This document shows positions 4,549 to 40,279 of a stretch of 43,061 nucleotides of DNA, in pieces. The stretch lies in IMG/VR virus record IMGVR_UViG_3300037722_000838, positions 1 to 43,061 of that record; one strand, given 5' to 3'. A program made the position numbers and the translations under genes. Positions within the stretch are counted from its first letter, which is position 1. Each line of letters begins with the position of its first letter. A model generated the notes under the pieces. That model searched no databases. It was not told the origin of the DNA and saw nothing but the letters and a program-made list of their open reading frames with translations. This stretch comes from a virus. Taxonomy: Duplodnaviria; Caudoviricetes.

Positions 4549-4797
4549 TCAGGCCGCGGAGGGTTCGAGCGAACTGAGCCAAACGCCCTTAGATTCGCCG
4601 TCCTCGAGCGCTGCGGCTACGACTTCGCCGGTGGTCAGGTCGAGGTAAACAGCCAGTTTCGGAATGTGTGAGAGGTTCGGCCGGCGCCACCCCTTCACCC
4701 ACGCTTCGACTGTGCCTACTGCGACGTCGAGATCTCTCGCCATGGCCCGGAGGCCTTGGTCGCCTTGTCGTTCTCTGAGTGCTTCTGACAGTCTCAT
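4549..4797 (-). CDS. XRE-family HTH immunity repressor with C-terminal -AA tail
   Basis: LRAMARDLDVAVGTVEAWVKGWRRP HTH; purine-rich RBS before ATG 4797; divergent from a Cro-like gene; 82 aa ending LEPSAA. Confidence 0.85.
   Translation of the reverse strand: MRLSEALRERQGDQGLRAMARDLDVAVGTVEAWVKGWRRPNLSHIPKLAVYLDLTTGEVVAAALEDGESKGVWLSSLEPSAA
4569..4598. other. Candidate attP core within the repressor 3' end
   Basis: Imperfect palindrome GCGAACTGAGCCAAACGCCCTTAGATTCGC with a dif-like layout, immediately upstream of the integrase. Confidence 0.4.
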
Positions 4798-4849
4798 TTT
4801 GCCCTTTCTCGCTCCCCCGGCTCCCGTTGTCGGGTCCCGCTTTTGTTCG

Positions 4850-4878
4850 ATCCTACCCACGTCTGAGGGTATTGGCAA
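4850..4878 (-). promoter_or_regulatory. SigA-type promoter for repressor/integrase
   Basis: TTGCCA-17 nt-TAGGAT on the minus strand. Confidence 0.7.
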
Positions 4879-11642: not shown

Positions 11643-12029
11643 ATGGAACGCTTTTGGTCGAAGGTCGATGCGTCGGGCGACTGTTGGGAGTGGACTGGTT
11701 GCGTCTTGCAGAACGGCTATGGACAGTTCTCAGATGAGGGGCGCCGGGTATTCGCTCATCGCTTTGTGTGGGAGCTGCTGGTCGGGCCGATCCCCGAGGG
11801 TCTGACCATCGACCACTTGTGCCGCAACAAGATCTGCGTGAATCCGGACCACTTGGAGCCGACGAGCATGAGGGTCAATGTGCTCCGCGGCGAAGGACCG
11901 ACAGCACGGAATGCCCGTAAGACTATTTGCAAACGCGGGCATGCTTTACGCGGATCCAACCTATATGTTCCGGCGTCAGGAACGCGGCAATGTCGTGCAT
12001 GTCGGCGAATCCGAAAGGTCTCACGATGA
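11643..12029 (+). CDS. HNH homing endonuclease with C-terminal Zn-binding DNA-binding domain
   Basis: RFWSKV...CWEWTG...GYG...AHR...IDHLCRNKICVNPDHLE...N, then CKRGH...CRAC. Confidence 0.9.
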   Translation: MERFWSKVDASGDCWEWTGCVLQNGYGQFSDEGRRVFAHRFVWELLVGPIPEGLTIDHLCRNKICVNPDHLEPTSMRVNVLRGEGPTARNARKTICKRGHALRGSNLYVPASGTRQCRACRRIRKVSR

Positions 12030-14981: not shown

Positions 14982-15710
14982 TCAGTCGGCCAGCCGCTCC
15001 GAGAACTCGTCGGCGATCTCCGCAGCCACTTCGGCTTTGACCTTCTCGGCGATCTGAGCGCCCAACGCAGCAATGTCCTCAGCCGACAGGGACACTTCGG
15101 GGGATTCGGCGGCGACCTGTTCGATGAGCTGGCGGGAGACAGCGGCGTCCACACGAGCCCGGTAGGCGTCACCTCTCGCTCCAGCGAGGAGCGCCTGTGC
15201 GCCCCGCTGGTTGCCGGTGACAGGGTCGGTGACCAGCCTGTACCAGATGGCGTCGATGTCGTCGTTGGTTAGTGGCATGTTTTCTCCTAGGTCCCATTCG
15301 TGGGTTTGGTCTGCGATCGTTGTGGCGACAACTGAGAGGTGGCCGTGGTTGATGTGGCCGTTGACTCCGGTGTACTCCCGCCACTCCCACGCCGGGCCTT
15401 TGCTGTTGGAGTAGGAGGCGAACATCCGCTCGTCGTGGATGAAGTATTTGAGGCGGGGATCTTTGGATGCGCGGAGGGCTTCGCCGATCGCGTCAACAAA
15501 CCCGGGCTCATGTTCGAAGAAGTCGAGCGCCCGGACGATCCCGTCGTCGTCGCGATTGTGGTCGGAGGTCCGATTGGAATGCTCGAGGTCGCCGAGTGTG
15601 CCGTCCACCGTGTACGAGTTGGTGTGGCCGCGGGCTTCCATGATCTGGTCGCCGAACGTTTCGATCGACCCGGCGACTCGCCACCCGTTGCCCGAGTACC
15701 TAAACGGCAT
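14982..15710 (-). CDS. Endolysin, Zn-peptidase (M15/Hedgehog-like) type
   Basis: DGTLGD..H....SDHN...VRALD...KYFI...YTGVNGHINHGHLS metal-ligand pattern; located in the lysis cluster. Confidence 0.8.
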   Translation of the reverse strand: MPFRYSGNGWRVAGSIETFGDQIMEARGHTNSYTVDGTLGDLEHSNRTSDHNRDDDGIVRALDFFEHEPGFVDAIGEALRASKDPRLKYFIHDERMFASYSNSKGPAWEWREYTGVNGHINHGHLSVVATTIADQTHEWDLGENMPLTNDDIDAIWYRLVTDPVTGNQRGAQALLAGARGDAYRARVDAAVSRQLIEQVAAESPEVSLSAEDIAALGAQIAEKVKAEVAAEIADEFSERLAD

Positions 15711-16212: not shown

Positions 16213-16470
16213 CTAACCCTGATCCTTGTCAGTTTCTGGTTTGACAACCTGGATCGTCCAGTCGCCTTCTTCGGTTTGGTGGAGGGTGACGTTGTGTCCG
16301 GCGGCGTTGTCCCACGCTTGAGCGGTGATTGTTTTGGATCTGGTTCTGCCGAGGATGGCGGTGAGTGCTCGGGCGTAGACGGCTTCGAGTTGTTCGACCC
16401 GGTTTTGGAGTGCTCGTTTTTCTACGGTGAGTTGTTCGTTGTGTTCACGGACTGTCATTTCGTCGGCCAT
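16213..16470 (-). CDS. Coiled-coil hypothetical protein
   Basis: SD GGGAGGT before ATG 16470 (MADEMTVREHNEQL). Confidence 0.7.
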   Translation of the reverse strand: MADEMTVREHNEQLTVEKRALQNRVEQLEAVYARALTAILGRTRSKTITAQAWDNAAGHNVTLHQTEEGDWTIQVVKPETDKDQG

Positions 16471-16484
16471 TTGGGTTACCTCCC

Positions 16485-16493
16485 TGGTAATGT
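16485..16493 (+). promoter_or_regulatory. Extended -10 promoter for the antisense cassette
   Basis: TGGTAATGT (TGnTAnnnT) just upstream of the structured leader. Confidence 0.55.
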
Positions 16494-16496
16494 CAG

Positions 16497-16590
16497 GTGC
16501 CGGGATAGACCGACGGGTCGAAAAGGTGGTGGTTCCGTCCCCGCCCTGCCCGGCACAACCAAAGGACGGAGCATCTGACGGAGGTGCAAT
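16497..16590 (+). ncRNA. Structured cis-regulatory RNA leader (three-way junction plus RBS hairpin)
   Basis: P1 GTGCCGGG/CCCGGCAC; P2 GACC-gacg-GGTC; P3 GGTGGTGG/CCCCGCC; TCCGTC(C) complementary to GGACGGA (16564) and GACGGA (16577); SD within the GCATCT/AGGTGC stem. Confidence 0.6.
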
Positions 16591-16800
16591 ATGGATTGCG
16601 AGACAACAACGCTGTCGGACGGAACCGTGATCTGCCACCTAGTGCCGCTGCCGACGTTGGTTCCGGCAGAGACAACCACTACAACGGTGCCAGACGTGCT
16701 GCCCATGACCGGGTTCGATCCGGTGGTGGGTGTGGTTGGGACGCTGGTGCTCATCCTCGGGGCAGCGCTAGTTCGAGTCGTTTCACCTTCTCGGAAATGA
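16591..16800 (+). CDS. LPxTG sortase-substrate mini-protein (69 aa)
   Basis: SD GGAGGT; Cys pair, TTTTT linker, LPMTG, hydrophobic helix, basic tail RVVSPSRK. Confidence 0.7.
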   Translation: MDCETTTLSDGTVICHLVPLPTLVPAETTTTTVPDVLPMTGFDPVVGVVGTLVLILGAALVRVVSPSRK

Positions 16801-17884
16801 CTGCAACAACCGCCCGTAAGTCATAGATCTCTTCCTCATAGGCTTCGGGGACAGCCTCGTGGACATGCTCGGCGCCGAAACCGAGCCGCACCTGGCCGTT
16901 CTCGTCGGTCCAGCGGATCGGTGTGGGTAGCACGAAATCTGCCGCGTCGGGTGCCCACCTCCAGTCCGGCTTGTATTTGAGAGAGGAGGTGGAACGAAAA
17001 ACCGTGTTTCCGCTGGCTGTTTGCACAAGGTTCGCCGCGGCAGCGTTTGTAGTGGAGTGCGGTCTGATCCCGCCACCGTCAACGATAAACCTGACCGCGC
17101 CGCCGATTATCGTATGGAGTACGTCGCCTCCCGGCCACCGAAGTCCGGTGTCTGTATCACCAAGACCAGCTAGTCCAGGGGTTAAGACCCCAACGAAATC
17201 ACCGCCGCCAGTCACGGCTAATTGCGCAATGGCGTTTGGCCCGTCTTGGAATCTTCCCCGGATCGTTCCAGCGTCAAGAAACGCGATACCTGCGTCCGAT
17301 GACAACCCTAACCGGTTATCTATTACGATCGTACCGGGGTCGTATAATGAGGCTGAGAACCCCATCCGTCCGACCTCGGTACCAGCGCTGTTGAACATTC
17401 GTGTGAACGCTTCCGCCGTGTCACCTCTGATTTCATACCGCTCTCCGCTGGCTGCTGTTCGGAAGCGGATAGCGGTGATAATCCCCGCGTTGATCTTGTC
17501 CGCGCTGAGGTCGTTGATTTTGGCGTTGGTGATCTGAGCATCCGCGATCTTCGCGGTAGTGATCTGAGCATCCGCGATCTTCGCGGTGGTCACCGCCAGG
17601 TTCGCGATCTTGACCGTCGTCACCGCACCATCCGCCAACAAATCAGTGGTGATAACCCCCGCATTCAAATGCAACGTCGTCGCCTGAATCGCACCCGCCG
17701 ACGAATCCAACAAAAACCCTTTAGTCGCATCCGTATCAGGACCCGCCGACAGATCCCCACCACCATCCCAATTGAACGAACGGATATCCCCCCGAAGTGT
17801 CACATTCCCCAGATTGGAAATGTCCTCCGGGTGGACCGTCTGAGGTACCGGCAACGCCGGGAACGGGTCATGCCGAGATGTCAT
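16751..17884 (-). CDS. Tail fibre/spike with C-terminal intramolecular chaperone (S74-like)
   Basis: 10-aa ITTAKIADAQ repeats; STSSLKYK cleavage motif, GFGAEHV, terminal coiled coil. Confidence 0.8.
   Translation of the reverse strand: MTSRHDPFPALPVPQTVHPEDISNLGNVTLRGDIRSFNWDGGGDLSAGPDTDATKGFLLDSSAGAIQATTLHLNAGVITTDLLADGAVTTVKIANLAVTTAKIADAQITTAKIADAQITNAKINDLSADKINAGIITAIRFRTAASGERYEIRGDTAEAFTRMFNSAGTEVGRMGFSASLYDPGTIVIDNRLGLSSDAGIAFLDAGTIRGRFQDGPNAIAQLAVTGGGDFVGVLTPGLAGLGDTDTGLRWPGGDVLHTIIGGAVRFIVDGGGIRPHSTTNAAAANLVQTASGNTVFRSTSSLKYKPDWRWAPDAADFVLPTPIRWTDENGQVRLGFGAEHVHEAVPEAYEEEIYDLRAVVAVISEKVKRLELALPRG
17529..17587. repeat. 30-bp period tandem duplication in the tail fibre
   Basis: GTGATCTGAGCATCCGCGATCTTCGCGGT occurs twice, identically. 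Confidence 0.85.
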
Positions 17885-32619: not shown

Positions 32620-33128
32620 GCCGTCCTAGCTATGTCGCGGCGCCGCAGGTTCTCTTGTGTCGTCACGGGTTCTAAGTCACCGGGATTGACACAAGGCCGA
32701 TTGAAACACAAGTGGTCGAGCTCCAGGCCCTCGGGAATCGGCCCCACCAGAAGCTCATACGCGAAGCGGTGGGCGCGTACAAACCGGCCGTCGACACCCA
32801 GCACGCCATATCCGTCCTTGTCGGTCGTCCCGGTCCACACCCAACAGCCGTCACTAATGAGCACCTTCGACCAAAAGCGCCGCCAGTCATTACCGACAAT
32901 CAGACCGGTCTTCTCTGGGTCGCCGTGTTTCCGCCACCGCTGATAGTGCTTCTCGCAGAGGCCTTTCGCTTTGTGGGGTTCTTCGCAGCCAGCCACCTCA
33001 CAACCGATTCGACTCTGTATCCGCAGGATCTTCTTCGGGTCCCGATACTTCAACCACCGCCGATAGTGCTTATTGCACAGCCCTCGCGCGTGAGGCGTCT
33101 TAGCGCATTCTTCGACTGAACAGATCAT
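32616..33128 (-). CDS. HNH homing endonuclease with two N-terminal Zn knuckles
   Basis: CSVEEC..GLCNKHY and CEVAGC..GLCEKHY, then RFWSKV...LDHLCFNRPCVNP...TTQEN. Confidence 0.9.
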   Translation of the reverse strand: MICSVEECAKTPHARGLCNKHYRRWLKYRDPKKILRIQSRIGCEVAGCEEPHKAKGLCEKHYQRWRKHGDPEKTGLIVGNDWRRFWSKVLISDGCWVWTGTTDKDGYGVLGVDGRFVRAHRFAYELLVGPIPEGLELDHLCFNRPCVNPGDLEPVTTQENLRRRDIARTA

Positions 33129-36100
33129 GACTGGCCCTCCGCAAGTATGGCCTCTAAGTCTAGAACCCGACCTCCAGTCCCGGCGCCTCTGGGATTGTCA
33201 GCACTAAACACAGACGGATCCCAAATGGGTACCCCGTCAATGTATAACCAGGCCAAGAGTCTGCGTTCTCCGGGTGCCGACAGTTGAGTCAAGCCAAACA
33301 ATTCTGGTCGATAGATCCCAAGGGTGATCTCCTCGGCCCCGGCGACGACTCGCGCCAATTGCTCCCTCGCTTCCGAATACCCCGGCTGCGTCACCTCCGG
33401 CGCATTTAGGCCTACGAACCGAACCCGCATCGGTCCGTCTTCGAGGAGGATCGACACGGTGTCCCCATCAATCACCGCCAGATCATTCAAGTCGTCGCCT
33501 GCCACCTGGATGCCCGACTCGAGGTCGGCGACTGGCGGCGGGACTGGCGGGGTGTAGTCGATCGGACCGAAGATCGGTTCTATCTCCTGGCGGTAATCAG
33601 CCAGAGTGGTGTAGCCAAGGTTGATGGCTTCGGTGAACCGGGAGCGGATCTCCGCCAACGTTTCTTCTGGCCAGTCCTCCATGCTCTCGATCCCCTGGTC
33701 CTGGAAGTACTTGTCGGCCTCGCCCAGATCGTCGAGCAGTCCCGTCCCGAAAGCGTCGCCGTGTTTGGCAAGCTGGCCGTGCACCGCCCCATTCTGCAAT
33801 GTGTTCAACAGGACCGGTTGAGCCACCTTGAACCGCTCATCGAAGTCGCCGATCAAAGAGTGGAACTCCCCGTAGGTGAGTTCGGTCCCGGCGGTCAGAT
33901 CCATCCCCGCCGCCGCCAACACTTTCGCTTCGTTCTCACCGAGGACAAACGACTTCGCCGCCAACGATTCGGAGATCCGACCGGACCACGGCTTGTAAGA
34001 AATCCACTCCCACACTCCATGGACCGCCCGGGCCCCGGACTTGTATACCGCTGCGGCGGCGTCGAACGCCCACTCCTCCACAGGACGCGAAACGATCCAC
34101 CCGTTCTTTCGGGCGTCTGACATCAGCTCAGACCCTTCGGGACCGGGCGGGACATTCTGGGTTCTTCCCGTCAGGGCGCTGATGTAGGTGTTCTTGAATT
34201 CGGCGTGGTCGTCGGAGCGGACCGGGATCCCCGAATCCTCGGTTTTCCCGATCAGGTTCACCGCGATCTCCGGGTGGATCAGGTGGAGGTAGTCCATGAA
34301 ACTGAATCCGGGATACACCTCGCGGCGTCCCGCCTCGAAGTACGCGGTGGTGAGTCGATCCCGTAAGAACTCAAGGTCGTCAGGGGCGGCGGTCCCCTCG
34401 AGGTATGAGTCCCAGATCGCTTTGATCCGCGGTTGGCCTTCGACGTCGAGGAGGTCGTTCTGTTGGAAGATCCCCGCCGACGACATCGACGCGAACACTT
34501 CCTCATCGAACAATCCTTCGTAGGCGCGGAGAGCCCGGTACTCGGCGTCGTAGCCGGTGAGAGGAAACACTCGGTCCCTGAGGTCCTGGTTCCACTCCTG
34601 GCGGTTTGCTTCGATCGCGCCTTTGACCGCGATCTCGCCGATCCGCTGGTTGAACTCGTCCGACCCCGGGACCAACGCCCAGATGCTCGCCTCGCCGTCG
34701 AGGTCCTCCTTGAAGAAGTCGGAGATCATCGACACTTGGAAGTCCCCCGTCGCTGACGGCACTTTCCCGTCAAGGACGATGTTGGTCAGCGACGCGCCGA
34801 GCCCGGTGTCGGTGTGGACATCCTCACCGAAAAACGTGTACCCGAGACGAGAGGCGCTGCCGGCGAGATCGCGCAGCGAACGACGCGACGTCGGGATCAC
34901 CCGGTCGAACATCTCCTCGAGGACACCACCCTCGCCGACCTCGGTGAACCCGAGCGCGGGGAACAACGTCTCGAAAGCGTCGATCGTCTCATCGTCAAAC
35001 ATGCCCTTGTCGACCATCAGGTCGAACATCCACGACGGCAGAGCCCCGAACTGAGGGGACACGTCCAACAGGAATTCTTGGTCGAAGTGGAACGGGAAGA
35101 AGGTCAGGTTGTCGATCGTCTGGTCGAGGAAACTGTCATGCTCGTTGTTCACCCCGGCGACGAGGTGGGAGAACTTCCCGAAAGCGCGGGCGTTGATCGG
35201 AATCCGTTCCACCGTCTGAGAGAGCGCCTGGTTGATCCTGGGGAACTTGGCCCGCGCCTCGAGAGGGATTCTCAGTGTCATCGGCTTGGTCAGGTGGTCG
35301 GACCACCACGACAGGAAATCCATTTGTGCCCTGGCAAACGGGAACATCAGCCCGGCCTCAACCCCGCGTCCGGCGAGCGACGACGCGGTGAACCGGTACA
35401 TCAGGTCATCGGCCCGCCGTTCGGCGTAGGCGGCGGCCCGAGCCTGTATCTGCGATTCGAGTTTCGCTCCGGTCTGGCGGACAAGGTGGGATACCGTCTG
35501 GTTGTCCATCCCCTGTTTCAGCATGAACTGTGCTTCCTCGATCGGCTTTTTGGCGTAGTCCGCCACCGTCTCCGCGGTGAGGACCTTGCTTCCGTGACGG
35601 GTGCGGAGAATGTCCATCGCCTCATCGAAGTAGTGCTCGAAGAACACCCCGGCGCGCCTTCCCGACGGAGCCCCGAAAAAAGTGTTGAAGATCGACGTTC
35701 CCGGCCCGGTCTTCCCGCTCAGCCCCGGCACCTGCTCTATCGCGTTGAGCAGCGACGCGTCCTTCACCACGTCGAGCCGTCCGCCCTCCGATGTTGCTGC
35801 CTTCCTCAACGCCCGGCGCATCGCGTTCCGCTGGTTCGGTTTGACCAACAGCTCGATCCAATGCTCGAAAGCGTTGTCGATGATGCCGAATGCTTCGTTG
35901 GCGGTGAGCTCGGTCCCCATCTTCACCGATTCGCGGATCGTGACTTTGGTCTGGCGGGCCTCCGCTTTCCCTGGTCGTCCGGTCCCCGCGCCGTTGTCCC
36001 ACCAGTCGATGAACCCCTGTGGGGCGATCTTGGTTCCGTCCTCGAGGATCTGGGCTTCGTCAATCCACCGGGCGTACTCACGGAACCTGGTGTCTTGGAG

Positions 36101-39100
36101 CAACGTCCCGTTCACCCACCGTTCCGCCTGCTCCCGGAAGTCGGCCTGTTTGAAACCTGGTGATCCTGCCCGGCGTCCTGGGTTTTTCACCCAGTCGTAG
36201 TTGGAGTAGTCGTCGGCGGACCACCCCCCAACATTGCGGCGGTACTGCTGTGCGTAAGGGTTCGGCATCGACTTTGTGAACTTCTGCACAAAGTTCGACT
36301 TCGCAAAGCTCTCCGTCCCCCGGCCCACAGCCGGGATCCCCGCAAGGGTCGCCCTTGTAAACTTGCCGACCTGACCGGTGTCCGCCAGGAACCGCAGAGT
36401 CTCATCCAGGGTCACCTTTCCCGCGGTGACCGGGTTAACTAGAAGGTTCATCGCAAACGCGAACTTCATCCCCCCAACAACCTTCTTGACCCGCTCCCCT
36501 CGCAGCACGTTTGTCACCTTCGCCAACGCGTTCGGGTTCCCGGCGATCTTCTCGTACAAGATCACCTCATACGGAGACGCCGGCAGCAGCACCTTCTGTG
36601 ACCGGTTGAACATCCCCACCGCGTCGAGACCGCGGGACATGTCCACGTCGTCGACAGCGAGCCCCATCCACAACCTGAGGTCCTGGTCGTCGCCTGCCAC
36701 CGACCGTTTCACCCCCGTCACGGCCGACCAGTCCCGCACCGGGATCTCCGGCGCCAACGGGTTTACGTTCTTGGTGACCGGCAGTATCCCCTCACCGAAC
36801 TTCGCTTCGAGCCTCTGGGCGATCTCCTCGTACAACTCAGCGATCACACCCGCCATCTCGTTGCGCGCCGCGTTCGCGACGTCGGCTTCGAGGTATGCCG
36901 CTTTGCCCAACTGCTCATGCGCCACCCGCCGCTTGTCGGCGACCCGACCAAGTTTCACTTGAGCGTCGGCGTACCGCCGCGACATCGTGGCGTGAGTCTG
37001 TTCGAGCTGCTCGCGGACCGCGGCTTTCGCTGCGTCGTCGGCGGTCAGGTTGTCCACCTTGGTCAAAGCGTCCTCGATCGCCGTCAGGTTCTCGCCCACC
37101 GCTTTGAGGTCGTCGGTCCCGGTGATCGCCGTCCTGGTCCCCGCCGACTCCCACAGCGACCGGCGCGCCGACTCTTTCATCGCCTGGTTCGCTCCCTGCA
37201 ACGCCAACTCATCACCTGCCGACGACACACGGCGCACCGCGTCAAGAAAGAACCTGGTGTAAGTGTCGGCGTCGCGGGGGAAGAATTGGGTGAGCATGTC
37301 GGCGAAAACGTCGAGGGACTGGTTCTCACCGAGCCTGACAGTCCGTCCGACGCTGAACTTGGTGAGCATTTGCATCAGCGGCCCGAGGTGCTCGTCGGAG
37401 ATTTTGCCACCGGCGATCGACTCGAGCATCCGACCTACCCCTTCGACGGTGGAGTGGCGTTGGGCTCGCATCGGTCCTTCACCGAGGTAGTCTTTGCCCA
37501 TCCCCCGGATCAGCACATCCTCGATCTGTTCTCTCGTCGCGTTCGGATCCATTGCAAGGTTGACCAGGTCGATCATGTCGATGTTGTCTAGGCCCGACAT
37601 TGATGACGCTACTTTGACTCCACGCGGATTGACGTAGCCACCGGAGAGCGCCGGGTACTCGTCGCCGATCCGGAACCCGAGACGTTCGGCCACCTCCGCG
37701 GCATCGCGACCGATGTATTCCTCGAGTCCGATGTAAGACCGGAACCCGCTCTCCATAGCGTCGGGGACCACCGCTTTCCCGTAACCGTTCTCGCGCATCC
37801 ACTGAGCGGTCGCCTCGAACCGGTCCTCATGTGCCTCCCAGTTCTCAAGGACGAACCCCCGTTTGGTCGCACGTGGCTGCTTCACCCCTTCGGGTGTGAA
37901 CACCCGGTAGTACGTCCCCTCATCGACCCGCTGCACCAGCCGGTCCGCTTGCAACGCATCGAGCAACCCGGCCGGCAGATCGCCAGGGTCGATGAACCCG
38001 CTGAGGTCTAACTCTCTGCCGAACACCGCCTGCACCCGCACCTGCGGCGCCCGGTCCGGTCGAAGTTGACGGACCCCTATCTCGTCCAACCCCCAATTGG
38101 TTGACTCCACAACCTCTTTCAGATGCTCGCCCGACCGAATCAGAATCGGGCCGTCCTCAATCTCCAAGAACAGGGACGCCTCCGGGTCGACCAGTCGGTC
38201 GTAATCCTCGACAGTCAAGTCCTCGAGATCGACGTTCCGTCCCAACAATTCATCGAGGCTTGAGGAAGGTGAACCGGCATCGGCGAAGGCTGACGCCACC
38301 GCCGGGTCGTCACTGAAATAGAACTTGCCGCCCTGCCCGGCCCGTTGACCGCCGGTCGTCCGACCTCGGAACCCAGCCTGCGAAGCGTCGAACACATCGA
38401 ACGTCTGCGAGGTGCCGTGGTAGAGAACCTTGCCCGTTTCGGCTAGTTCGTCCACCGTCCCGAAAGGCACCGGGCTCTGAGCCAGCGCCTTCTCTAGTGG
38501 CGGAGACGTCACGCCTTTGATGACGCCCTCAGCAATATCCTCTAGGTTCGACTTCCCCACGATTGCTTTTATCGCGCTGGGATAGGAACCCATCCTCATG
38601 TACACCCTGGCGTACTTCGGGTTAGTCAACGCCTTCCGGGCTACCGCCCTCATCCCCTTCGCACCAGGAAAAACGAAGTTGAACGGGTCGAACAACCCGC
38701 CAACCACCAGGTTCGCCGCGTCCGCCGCTCCGCCCTCCAACCCGAAGTACTCAGCGGCGGTCATCACGTTCACGCCGAGCACCTGCTCACGGTGGGCATC
38801 GGTTTCGCCCGGCGCCTCGAAAACCTGTTGGAGCCGGGTGAACCCTTCCTCCCAGTCTCCGCCGACGAACTCACCTCCAGCACCGAAGATGTCCTTCCAC
38901 GCGTCGATGGCGGCGACCCCGAGCGTCTGGCTGAACATGTCCCACGCCTCAAACACCTCAAGCGTCTTCCCCAGTCCGGTTTCGACAGCCTCCCCCAGCG
39001 CCGAGCGCCCCTCCGCCTCGGCTTCGAGCTCGGTGAGAATCTCCTCCGACGTCATCGCCCGGAAATCGGTCAGCATCTCCTCGCGGTTCTCGTCAACAAT

Positions 39101-40279
39101 CTCCGCGGCCAGCTCAAGCGCCGTCGCCGAGTCCAACTCCCCTTCGGCGTCGCCCATCATCGCCCGAGCGATCGAAGCAATGATCATGCCCTCGGGAAGC
39201 GGGATCACCGACGCCAACCGGACCGACTCCTCGGTGATCTCCCCCTTCTCATCTCGGATCCGGTTCGCCCGCCTCTCCTCGATGTCCTCAACATCCTGCT
39301 GGGTCAACCCTCCCCACAGAGCATCGATACTGGTCCGCGCCGTCGGGTTGTTCTCCAAGAAACTGCCGATCGAATGCGCGGTGTCCATGATCGCTTGAAC
39401 CGCGCCACGACCATGCTCCGGTGTGAGTTGGCCGCCAGCAACCCGCCCGTCGGCCTGAGCGGACACCACTTCGGCCATCACATCGAGATGGTTCTTCGGG
39501 TCGAACCCCGCCCTGGCTTCAATCCCGATCGTCTCCTCCCTGTCACCCTCACCGATCGTCACCGCGAGAATCCCCGACGACGGGGAAAACGACCACGCAC
39601 CCGGTACATCGAACAGGTTCTCGAATGTCTGCGCTCGCGTCAGCCCGCCACCGACCGCCTCACCGCCAGCCCGACGACGGTCGCCTTCAATCCCCAGGTC
39701 CGGAGCGTCGGGAAGGTCCATGTCCGCCAGCTCCATCGCAGCCGATCCGGTCAGCGCCTCGAACGTCCCCGACATCGCATCCGCCTGCTCAAGTTCGAGC
39801 TGGTGTGCGAGTTCGGTCGCACCCACCTCCCAAGCCACCTCCGCCACCGCGTCGAACACGTCACCGAACTGGCTGACAGGCTCACCCCGCATGATCTTCT
39901 CCGCGATCTCAATGTCGGTGAGAGCGAACAACGCGTTGACGTCTGAGTTGAGAGCACCTGTTAGAGCAGGGTCACCGGCGGTCATCTCCAGGAAGCGGTC
40001 GGCGATCGGGTCGACCACACTCGAAAAGTCCATTCCCGGAATCCGGTTCCCCAAATGGAGGGCGACCGCCGCCTGGACCGTCTGACGCTGCTTCGAGAAT
40101 TCGAGGGCGCTCTCACCGATCACCGCAGCCCGACCCGCAGCGTCAGCGGCCACACTCTGTTTCACCGCCGGTTTCGACATCGCTTTAACGCCCGTCACAG
40201 GCGCAGTCCCCAACGCTTTGTCAGGGTCGTAGGCGGCTGGGTCGGTGTAGAACTTCCGGTCGGCGGGATCGATCGGCAC
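33125..40279 (-). CDS. Giant polyvalent internal virion/ejection protein with ART-like and C-terminal SNase-like domains
   Basis: 2384 aa; LYHGTSQTFDVFD...GKFYFSDDPAVASAFA...ENGYG (ART-PolyVal-like); VIDGDTV...RVRFVGLNAPE...RRLLAWLYIDG (thermonuclease-like). Confidence 0.8.
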   Translation of the reverse strand: MPIDPADRKFYTDPAAYDPDKALGTAPVTGVKAMSKPAVKQSVAADAAGRAAVIGESALEFSKQRQTVQAAVALHLGNRIPGMDFSSVVDPIADRFLEMTAGDPALTGALNSDVNALFALTDIEIAEKIMRGEPVSQFGDVFDAVAEVAWEVGATELAHQLELEQADAMSGTFEALTGSAAMELADMDLPDAPDLGIEGDRRRAGGEAVGGGLTRAQTFENLFDVPGAWSFSPSSGILAVTIGEGDREETIGIEARAGFDPKNHLDVMAEVVSAQADGRVAGGQLTPEHGRGAVQAIMDTAHSIGSFLENNPTARTSIDALWGGLTQQDVEDIEERRANRIRDEKGEITEESVRLASVIPLPEGMIIASIARAMMGDAEGELDSATALELAAEIVDENREEMLTDFRAMTSEEILTELEAEAEGRSALGEAVETGLGKTLEVFEAWDMFSQTLGVAAIDAWKDIFGAGGEFVGGDWEEGFTRLQQVFEAPGETDAHREQVLGVNVMTAAEYFGLEGGAADAANLVVGGLFDPFNFVFPGAKGMRAVARKALTNPKYARVYMRMGSYPSAIKAIVGKSNLEDIAEGVIKGVTSPPLEKALAQSPVPFGTVDELAETGKVLYHGTSQTFDVFDASQAGFRGRTTGGQRAGQGGKFYFSDDPAVASAFADAGSPSSSLDELLGRNVDLEDLTVEDYDRLVDPEASLFLEIEDGPILIRSGEHLKEVVESTNWGLDEIGVRQLRPDRAPQVRVQAVFGRELDLSGFIDPGDLPAGLLDALQADRLVQRVDEGTYYRVFTPEGVKQPRATKRGFVLENWEAHEDRFEATAQWMRENGYGKAVVPDAMESGFRSYIGLEEYIGRDAAEVAERLGFRIGDEYPALSGGYVNPRGVKVASSMSGLDNIDMIDLVNLAMDPNATREQIEDVLIRGMGKDYLGEGPMRAQRHSTVEGVGRMLESIAGGKISDEHLGPLMQMLTKFSVGRTVRLGENQSLDVFADMLTQFFPRDADTYTRFFLDAVRRVSSAGDELALQGANQAMKESARRSLWESAGTRTAITGTDDLKAVGENLTAIEDALTKVDNLTADDAAKAAVREQLEQTHATMSRRYADAQVKLGRVADKRRVAHEQLGKAAYLEADVANAARNEMAGVIAELYEEIAQRLEAKFGEGILPVTKNVNPLAPEIPVRDWSAVTGVKRSVAGDDQDLRLWMGLAVDDVDMSRGLDAVGMFNRSQKVLLPASPYEVILYEKIAGNPNALAKVTNVLRGERVKKVVGGMKFAFAMNLLVNPVTAGKVTLDETLRFLADTGQVGKFTRATLAGIPAVGRGTESFAKSNFVQKFTKSMPNPYAQQYRRNVGGWSADDYSNYDWVKNPGRRAGSPGFKQADFREQAERWVNGTLLQDTRFREYARWIDEAQILEDGTKIAPQGFIDWWDNGAGTGRPGKAEARQTKVTIRESVKMGTELTANEAFGIIDNAFEHWIELLVKPNQRNAMRRALRKAATSEGGRLDVVKDASLLNAIEQVPGLSGKTGPGTSIFNTFFGAPSGRRAGVFFEHYFDEAMDILRTRHGSKVLTAETVADYAKKPIEEAQFMLKQGMDNQTVSHLVRQTGAKLESQIQARAAAYAERRADDLMYRFTASSLAGRGVEAGLMFPFARAQMDFLSWWSDHLTKPMTLRIPLEARAKFPRINQALSQTVERIPINARAFGKFSHLVAGVNNEHDSFLDQTIDNLTFFPFHFDQEFLLDVSPQFGALPSWMFDLMVDKGMFDDETIDAFETLFPALGFTEVGEGGVLEEMFDRVIPTSRRSLRDLAGSASRLGYTFFGEDVHTDTGLGASLTNIVLDGKVPSATGDFQVSMISDFFKEDLDGEASIWALVPGSDEFNQRIGEIAVKGAIEANRQEWNQDLRDRVFPLTGYDAEYRALRAYEGLFDEEVFASMSSAGIFQQNDLLDVEGQPRIKAIWDSYLEGTAAPDDLEFLRDRLTTAYFEAGRREVYPGFSFMDYLHLIHPEIAVNLIGKTEDSGIPVRSDDHAEFKNTYISALTGRTQNVPPGPEGSELMSDARKNGWIVSRPVEEWAFDAAAAVYKSGARAVHGVWEWISYKPWSGRISESLAAKSFVLGENEAKVLAAAGMDLTAGTELTYGEFHSLIGDFDERFKVAQPVLLNTLQNGAVHGQLAKHGDAFGTGLLDDLGEADKYFQDQGIESMEDWPEETLAEIRSRFTEAINLGYTTLADYRQEIEPIFGPIDYTPPVPPPVADLESGIQVAGDDLNDLAVIDGDTVSILLEDGPMRVRFVGLNAPEVTQPGYSEAREQLARVVAGAEEITLGIYRPELFGLTQLSAPGERRLLAWLYIDGVPIWDPSVFSADNPRGAGTGGRVLDLEAILAEGQS

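Follow-up and report, generated by a model that had tools for sequence, protein, structure and literature searches.

Introduction

The int-alpA motif (RF02996) is found before genes of phages and mobile elements; Rfam types it as 'Gene; sRNA' and prints for it a structure of 17 nested pairs. The motif reportedly originates with Weinberg et al. 2017, and we take its name to point to integrase or AlpA genes as neighbours. For int-alpA, 23 of 23 pairs are given as covarying in the S1 Table of PMC7657543, with the Rfam and the ZWD structure alike. Since 23 pairs are listed there against 17 nested ones, RF02996 probably already annotates a pseudoknot of about 6 pairs between the loop of the third stem (L3) and a first downstream target (site 1). 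Elsewhere, 'int-alpA' appears as a table row in PMC12370729, and in the matching passage of PMC13612085 it is an unrelated gene-order phrase. The accession 'RF02996' was absent from the main texts searched and present in the supplements of PMC7657543 and PMC10690425. The main text of PMC5737381 does not name the motif, and its supplement may already describe the second target (site 2) or the hairpin (P4) discussed below. Topic searches of the literature found no paper testing the function of int-alpA or a two-site design, and the likely source supplement lay outside that search.

Phages carry a group of leader and antisense RNAs that includes IsrK of Gifsy-1, the CI RNA of P4 and the C4 RNA of P1. 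IsrK and P4 CI, described in passages of PMC4825925, are phage leader RNAs with loops complementary to their own transcript and with mobile-element genes under their control, and a short form of them acts in trans; we see in them a likeness to int-alpA. Int-alpA differs from C4, CI and IsrK in that both of its sites lie at most 30 nt downstream and any short form of it is hypothetical. There is also a likeness to the cobalamin riboswitches (btuB, env8HyCbl), in which, according to the relevant passages of PMC10327014, the L5-L13 kiss stabilises a structure that blocks the ribosome-binding site (RBS). A loop of the upstream domain kisses there the loop of a downstream hairpin, as is predicted for int-alpA, although the core of int-alpA is far smaller, no ligand is known for it, and its loop has a parking site in addition. 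The homing endonucleases I-TevI, segB and mobE of T4-like phages have RBS-sequestering hairpins, as stated in part of PMC2988022, and the likeness lies in a hairpin that covers the RBS of a selfish nuclease gene. The T4-like hairpins are described as very stable and as released by a late promoter inside the stem, whereas P4 of int-alpA is weak and coupled to the junction loop. Passages of PMC2864571 served for comparison only.

In this work we analysed an element at positions 16497-16590 of a phage record of 43,061 nucleotides (the window), which has direct terminal repeats and a GC content of 61%.

Relatives and Tests

Relatives were collected by five pattern scans, which together with the element's own locus gave 383 matches. 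A junction filter was passed by 275 of them, and 108 were dropped because they failed the filter or lay at a contig edge. Removal of redundancy at 80% identity gave three sets of 80, 64, and 59 representatives (203 in all), the first set including the 16497-16590 element. The junction letters were fixed by the search patterns, so their invariance among the relatives is not evidence of a binding pocket. By the core pattern we estimated about 480 viral and 2500 metagenome stretches, chance matches included. Covariation in the junction was followed in a MAFFT alignment of 60 sequences, formed by the element and 59 of 95 references selected by geometry. In the two-site test both sites had to reach −7 kcal/mol or lower and to have at least 4 loop nucleotides in common, the energies being stacking terms only. 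The downstream products amounted to 133, many of them cut short by the flank, and their groups were counted by hand.

The Element Belongs to the int-alpA Family

The Rfam scan of the whole record gave RF02996 at 16498-16569 with 42.2 bits against a cut-off of 35.8 (E 1.6e-05), the match being full length, from position 1 to 71 of the 71 of the model. The junction letters UAG, CGAAAAG, and CCU of the RF02996 alignment and the stems P1, P2, and P3 are all present in the element. It also shares with the family the position before phage or mobile-element genes, sitting as it does in a 43-kb phage record, and it differs in its cargo, an LPxTG-like minigene and not an integrase or AlpA. Nothing besides int-alpA reached the gathering score in the 43,061 bases, with no C4, CI, IsrK, or cobalamin match. 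A sequence-only reading of this DNA had suspected a wider phage RNA class. Relatives do exist, but the class is not new, and the proposal of a novel class was rejected; the Rfam match that takes away the novelty leaves the feature itself standing. A hammerhead ribozyme was rejected as well, as the order and letters of the junction are unlike the hammerhead consensus and no Rfam match supports it.

The 71-nt model stops at site 1, and its 3′ tail is where L3 of the element finds its complement, 7 bp with 16564-16570. Site 2, the hairpin P4, and the start codon all fall outside the model. The element is thus an ordinary member of the known int-alpA family with a well-supported 3′ extension. The Rfam cut-off was passed by 18 of 20 loci tested from the first set, which have a GACG loop on P2, and by 9 of 20 from the second set, in which this loop was left free; because only these 9 pass, the family is wider than the Rfam cut-off. 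An invariant GACG loop on P2 was rejected, since UAGCU and UCGCU types dominate once the loop is left free.

By Rfam up to E 1 no second int-alpA copy was found in the record. A relaxed-pattern match at 38442 was judged by eye to have a different layout, and the HNH gene at 11643 of the same phage is without a leader of the int-alpA type.

Structure of the Junction, the Loop, and Its Two Targets

The int-alpA core is a three-way junction at 16497-16556 on the plus strand, assigned by Rfam, by folding, and by covariation, with 12 of the 15 consensus pairs in the junction varying on both sides (RNAalifold). The RNAalifold consensus is limited to the junction because the alignment did not line up the 3′ part. 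In the minimum free energy fold, P1 pairs 16497-16504 with 16549-16556 (8 bp), P2 occupies 16508-16519 with a GACG loop, and P3 pairs 16525-16529 with 16541-16545; the joining segments are AUA (J1/2), GAAAA at 16520-16524 (J2/3), and CUG (J3/1). This is the junction that had been drawn from the sequence alone, and it was borne out by the fold, with pair probabilities of at least 0.94 in the stems. The 60 nt of the junction fold with −31.3 kcal/mol (z −2.80), and none of 200 shuffles was equally stable. For 97 nt of the sense strand z was −2.27, against +0.25 for the opposite strand. The closing G-C pair of P2 is flanked by UA (16505-16507) and GA (16520-16522), which presumably resembles a loop-E-type extension with a sheared G-A and a Hoogsteen U-A pair.

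L3 occupies 16530-16540 (plus strand), and its pairing segment, UCCGUCC at 16534-16540, was recognized by sequence and by the loop-site test. C16539 and C16540 are paired in a weak extension of P3 in the minimum free energy fold, and pairing of the full loop needs both to be opened. After P1 runs a single-stranded linker, AACCAAA (16557-16563, plus strand); linkers across the family are poor in G (G 5%, U 45%). It leads to site 1, GGACGGA at 16564-16570 (plus strand), which forms 7 Watson-Crick pairs with L3. Site 2, GACGGA(G) at 16577-16583 (plus strand), is at 16577-16582 the complement of UCCGUC, 16534-16539 of L3. The double complementarity of L3 proposed in the sequence-only reading is therefore exact, over 7 nt at 16564-16570 and 6 nt at 16577-16582. 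Among 2152 tiles of 40 nt covering the genome, two contained two perfect 6-nt complements of L3, one of them probably the element's own.

Hairpin P4 (16571-16587, plus strand) is formed by GCAUCU and AGGUGC around the loop GACGG, with a folding energy of −6.3 kcal/mol and the backing of the family test described below. The Shine-Dalgarno sequence (SD), GGAGG at 16580-16584 (plus strand), was assigned by sequence 6 nt ahead of the ATG at 16591 and lies partly in the P4 loop and partly in the 3′ strand of P4; the ATG is 34 nt past P1. Site 2 had been placed in the loop of a hairpin that buries the SD. The hairpin over the SD holds, but only 5 of the 6 nt (GACGG) are in its loop, and A16582 belongs to the top stem pair. 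Site 2 can thus form 5 pairs with L3 within the P4 loop, and 6-7 once the top of P4 opens. One loop has here two mutually exclusive targets, and a predicted hairpin that covers the SD presents the second of them. As both use the same loop bases, only one site pairs per molecule.

Two Loop-Matched Sites across Relatives

The two-site design was found in 65 of 80, 51 of 64, and 47 of 59 representatives, that is, in 163 of 203. Swapped loops passed in 18.7%, 14.7%, and 19.4% (z 12.9-15.7), and the pattern is absent from 40 of the 203. With GC-matched swaps the test was passed by 18.7%, and with swaps from the nearest relative by 41.9%; where the loops differ, the latter value was 36.7% against 80.2% for own loops (n = 177). 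These two controls reduce the effect of shared ancestry and do not remove it. When the positions were left free within the next 50 nt, the best and second helices had −10.9 and −8.9 kcal/mol, against −7.7 and −5.9 kcal/mol with swapped loops (z −14.5 and −16.3). Compensatory changes in three separate sets of relatives support the anatomy of a pseudoknot or kissing-loop switch read from this one locus. In near relatives all three partners change together: GCCUUA occurs with UAAGGC and AAGGC in one locus (L005), and GUCCUA with UAGGAC and AGGAC in another (L035). Site 1 was the stronger in 90 of 123 elements, equal to site 2 in 9, and weaker in 24. L032 and L051 form a natural pair for comparison: they are near-identical, share the loop and site 1 and keep P4, but L051 has an intact site 2 and in L032 this site has decayed.

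The pairings in the RBS region are mutually exclusive, as in an expression platform, with shared loop bases in the same 163 of 203 and overlap with the SD in 85 of 118, where site 2 covers at least 2 bases of the best SD; 22 showed no clear SD. Because most relatives keep the two-site design, int-alpA is likely an on/off switch for translation. A link between the length of P1 and that of the linker was set aside as partly an artefact of how P1 was extended.

The Hairpin, Start Signals, and Cargo of the Relatives

The stem enclosing site 2 had a mean energy of −3.08 kcal/mol in 123 two-site elements, against −0.61 kcal/mol with swapped halves (z −20.7) and −0.61 kcal/mol in spacer shuffles. A P4 of −2 kcal/mol or lower was present in 82 of them, compared to 12-13% of the controls, and the remaining 41 were without it. 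Site 2 lies entirely inside the P4 loop in 51 of the 82. In the third set of relatives P4 surrounded site 2 in 34 of 47, against 11.3%. The kissing-loop geometry is predicted family-wide, about a third of the elements being without a clear P4.

Ahead of P1, hexamers of the form TAnnnT peak at 6 nt (26 of 141, against a background of about 2 per position), with enrichment from 3 to 7 nt, and the signal for a −35 element is weak (23 of 68 against 11). In this copy there is a candidate extended −10, TG-G-TAATGT at 16485-16493 on the plus strand, 3 nt before P1 and in line with the family-wide TAnnnT enrichment. A strict sigma-70 consensus scan of the record gave 0 sites, so this −10 is a candidate by position and family trend. 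One relative (L025, 517-658, plus strand) begins 6 nt after a tRNA gene, and since it adjoins that gene its 5′ end could come from tRNA processing rather than from a promoter.

A Pfam match was obtained for 48 of the 133 downstream products, and 85 stayed unnamed. The commonest named cargo is homing-endonuclease-like, with HNH, GIY-YIG, NUMOD, or AP2 in 20 of the 48, followed by DUF4379, CapR, or DUF559 (8), antirepressor-type products (3), DUF1376 or DUF6291 (3), methylase, glycosyltransferase, integrase, and tail products (2 each), and 6 others. Integrase models were matched by 2 of the 133 and AlpA is listed for none, while the next gene of our element is an orphan ORF. No shared metabolic or signalling theme was found among the 133 products, which argues against a metabolite signal; there is no common product or pathway that could act as one.

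Genomic Setting

The record has matches to phage genes for terminase, integrase, RecT, YqaJ, HNH, and tail fibre. The element and the ORF that follows it are plus-strand features flanked by minus-strand genes. On one side is a tail-fibre-like gene (16751-17884), the 3′ end of which shares 50 nt with the ORF, and on the other a run of genes headed by an 85-aa ORF (16213-16470), which starts 27 nt upstream of P1. Judging from its position, this run would be the lysis region. For the divergent minus-strand gene, the sequence immediately upstream of its SD is overlapped by the candidate extended −10, and that SD (16478-16484; region 16478-16493) adjoins the −10 of the plus-strand leader. Late transcription would traverse the entire element in antisense.

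The downstream ORF (16591-16800, plus strand) is a predicted orphan of 69 aa, known from its translation and antisense to late genes. It is rich in Thr and Pro and has an LPMTG motif followed by a hydrophobic stretch and a basic tail, SRK, the order looked for in a sortase substrate; no signal peptide was evident by eye in the translation. There was no match in Pfam, NCBIfam, or PHROG, and the protein search for homologs returned the ORF itself alone (2 candidates). A weak Atlas lead (0.83) goes to an actinobacterial LPXTG cluster, 47% of whose members carry Gram_pos_anchor.

No match to the locus was obtained by blastn among cultured phages. The one phage locus found to be related (L265) is 73% identical over residues 1-172 of the 242-aa protein encoded at 14982-15710 (minus strand); this protein sits at the endolysin position and matches no Pfam or NCBIfam family and one PHROG of unknown function. 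No int-alpA match was present in that locus. Its small ORFs at 2410-2844 and 4636-4866 (both minus strand) and the ORF at 16591-16800 (plus strand) are different and all membrane-protein-like, antisense to the tail-to-lysis region, and the place seems to be a slot for accessory surface genes. Far from the element, a 2384-aa ORF (33125-40279, minus strand) has a sub-threshold ART-PolyVal match at residues 617-669 (E 4.3e-05) and is possibly a polyvalent protein delivered with the virion.

Discussion

The evidence speaks more for a 5′ leader than for a free sRNA in the case of int-alpA. Some form of translational control through pairing between the loop and the SD is very probable. For the particular form that we prefer, a cis translation switch gated at the junction, with the loop at site 1 in the ON state and kissing the P4 loop in the OFF state, we consider the chances about even. 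Transcription would start at P1, the RNA being the leader of its own message. Site 1 would be made first and would pair more strongly, so that the ground state would have the loop parked there. By itself P4 is weak (family mean −3.1 kcal/mol, here −6.3 kcal/mol), and ribosomes could then load. A kiss between L3 and the P4 loop (L4) would cover SD bases and stabilise P4, and initiation would be blocked, by analogy with the cobalamin riboswitches. As site 2 is the weaker and is nevertheless kept, something must pay for the OFF state and a trigger is implied. As a guess, the likeliest payer would be a small molecule or a widely available protein bound at the GAUAG/CGAAAAG/CCUKC junction. The cargo of this copy, not being a nucleic-acid-binding protein, argues against self-regulation by the gene product. 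There is uncertainty about the ground state because stacking energies ignore the geometry of kissing and pseudoknots, and the parked state might itself stack on P4 and repress, since P4 has here −6.3 kcal/mol and abuts site 1.

Other readings share the same anatomy and assign it differently. A short junction RNA of about 60 nt, made by termination after P1 or by 3′ trimming down to P1, could act in trans by kissing the P4 loop of full-length messages. As this short form lacks site 1, its loop would be free to kiss, while site 1 would mask the message's own loop, and the outcome would be a burst in a naive cell and shut-off as the short RNA accumulates. Such RNA-only feedback seems unlikely, although several observations suit it. 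Site 2 is exposed in the loop of a hairpin and pairs more weakly in cis than site 1; copies on the same contig differ in their loops (pairs L032/L067 and L063/L162); Rfam types int-alpA as an sRNA; and no protein is required, which suits the range across phyla and the unrelated cargo. RNAs that are both small RNA and leader have a precedent in IsrK and in the processed P4 CI RNA (passages of PMC4825925). Among 144 relatives, 42 have at least 5 U within the 8 nt after P1, a content reached by 4.2% of upstream windows, but the other 102 have no U-tract, and in this copy no terminator was found after P1, with 0 U in the 8 nt following it. Site-2 helices, with a mean of 5.5 bp, are moreover short for a contact between separate molecules. 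The early formation of site 1 also fits a throttle or timer that needs no partner, in which the loop parks at site 1 and later drifts or equilibrates to the kiss, each message yielding a short or low burst and temperature or magnesium possibly shifting the balance. The unrelated and often nuclease-like cargo (those 20 of 48 named products) would suit such a device, and RBS hairpins limit the T4 homing endonucleases, as part of PMC2988022 states. Against it, L3 pairs more strongly with site 1 than with site 2 in 90 of 123 elements and the drift to site 2 would be uphill unless tertiary contacts add energy, and a plain hairpin could throttle without such machinery; we regard it as quite unlikely.

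The polarity of the switch could also be the opposite, with a parked pseudoknot that stacks on P4 and locks it (OFF) and a loop that moves away or an invasion of P4 that sets the start region free (ON). P4 starts at most 1 nt from the end of site 1 in 67 of 98 elements, which suits coaxial stacking. In this copy the helix between site 1 and L3 can be extended to 16572 (9 bp) at the cost of two P4 pairs, and at that length it would strip P4 from −6.3 to −1.1 kcal/mol, so that the two are coupled. Site 2, however, overlaps the SD in 85 of 118, where a paired loop should be in competition with the tail of the 16S rRNA, and we hold this polarity to be very unlikely. Finally, site 2 might be incidental, nothing more than the SD, or a direct repeat in the DNA to which a protein binds, leaving only the site-1 pseudoknot or no effect at the RNA level. 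Most loops, rich in pyrimidines, would match any SD, and 15-19% of swapped loops, or 42% with the nearest relative, pass the two-site test. Yet own loops pair better than swapped ones when the site-2 region is held fixed (z −9.6 and −8.8), and 19 of the 74 different shared words in the first two sets (116 two-site elements) are not anti-SD-like and still match twice. The sites are a variable 4 to 18 nt apart, there are more G-U than A-C pairs on the element's strand (39 against 17, a hand sum from the alignment of 60 sequences), and P4 covaries around site 2. An incidental site 2 is thus highly improbable.

Taken to its boldest form, the trans feedback would make int-alpA a protein-free, address-coded switch used by phages of many phyla for any cargo, giving a burst at entry and then silence. 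We hold this to be improbable; if true, the conserved junction would present a freely re-programmable loop of 5-7 nt. The alternative bold reading is a new class of phage riboswitch that responds to some signal of infection.

The int-alpA motif is widespread and catalogued, and no tested function for it was found in the literature. When the motif is extended by about 25 nt, a conserved hairpin comes into view, and its loop repeats the target of the pseudoknot and overlaps the SD; the orphan motif thereby becomes a switch open to testing, with three parts that can be mutated. The copy at 16497-16590 suits such testing by its long GC-rich pairings. If the loop is indeed freely programmable, int-alpA would be a compact part for synthetic gene control.
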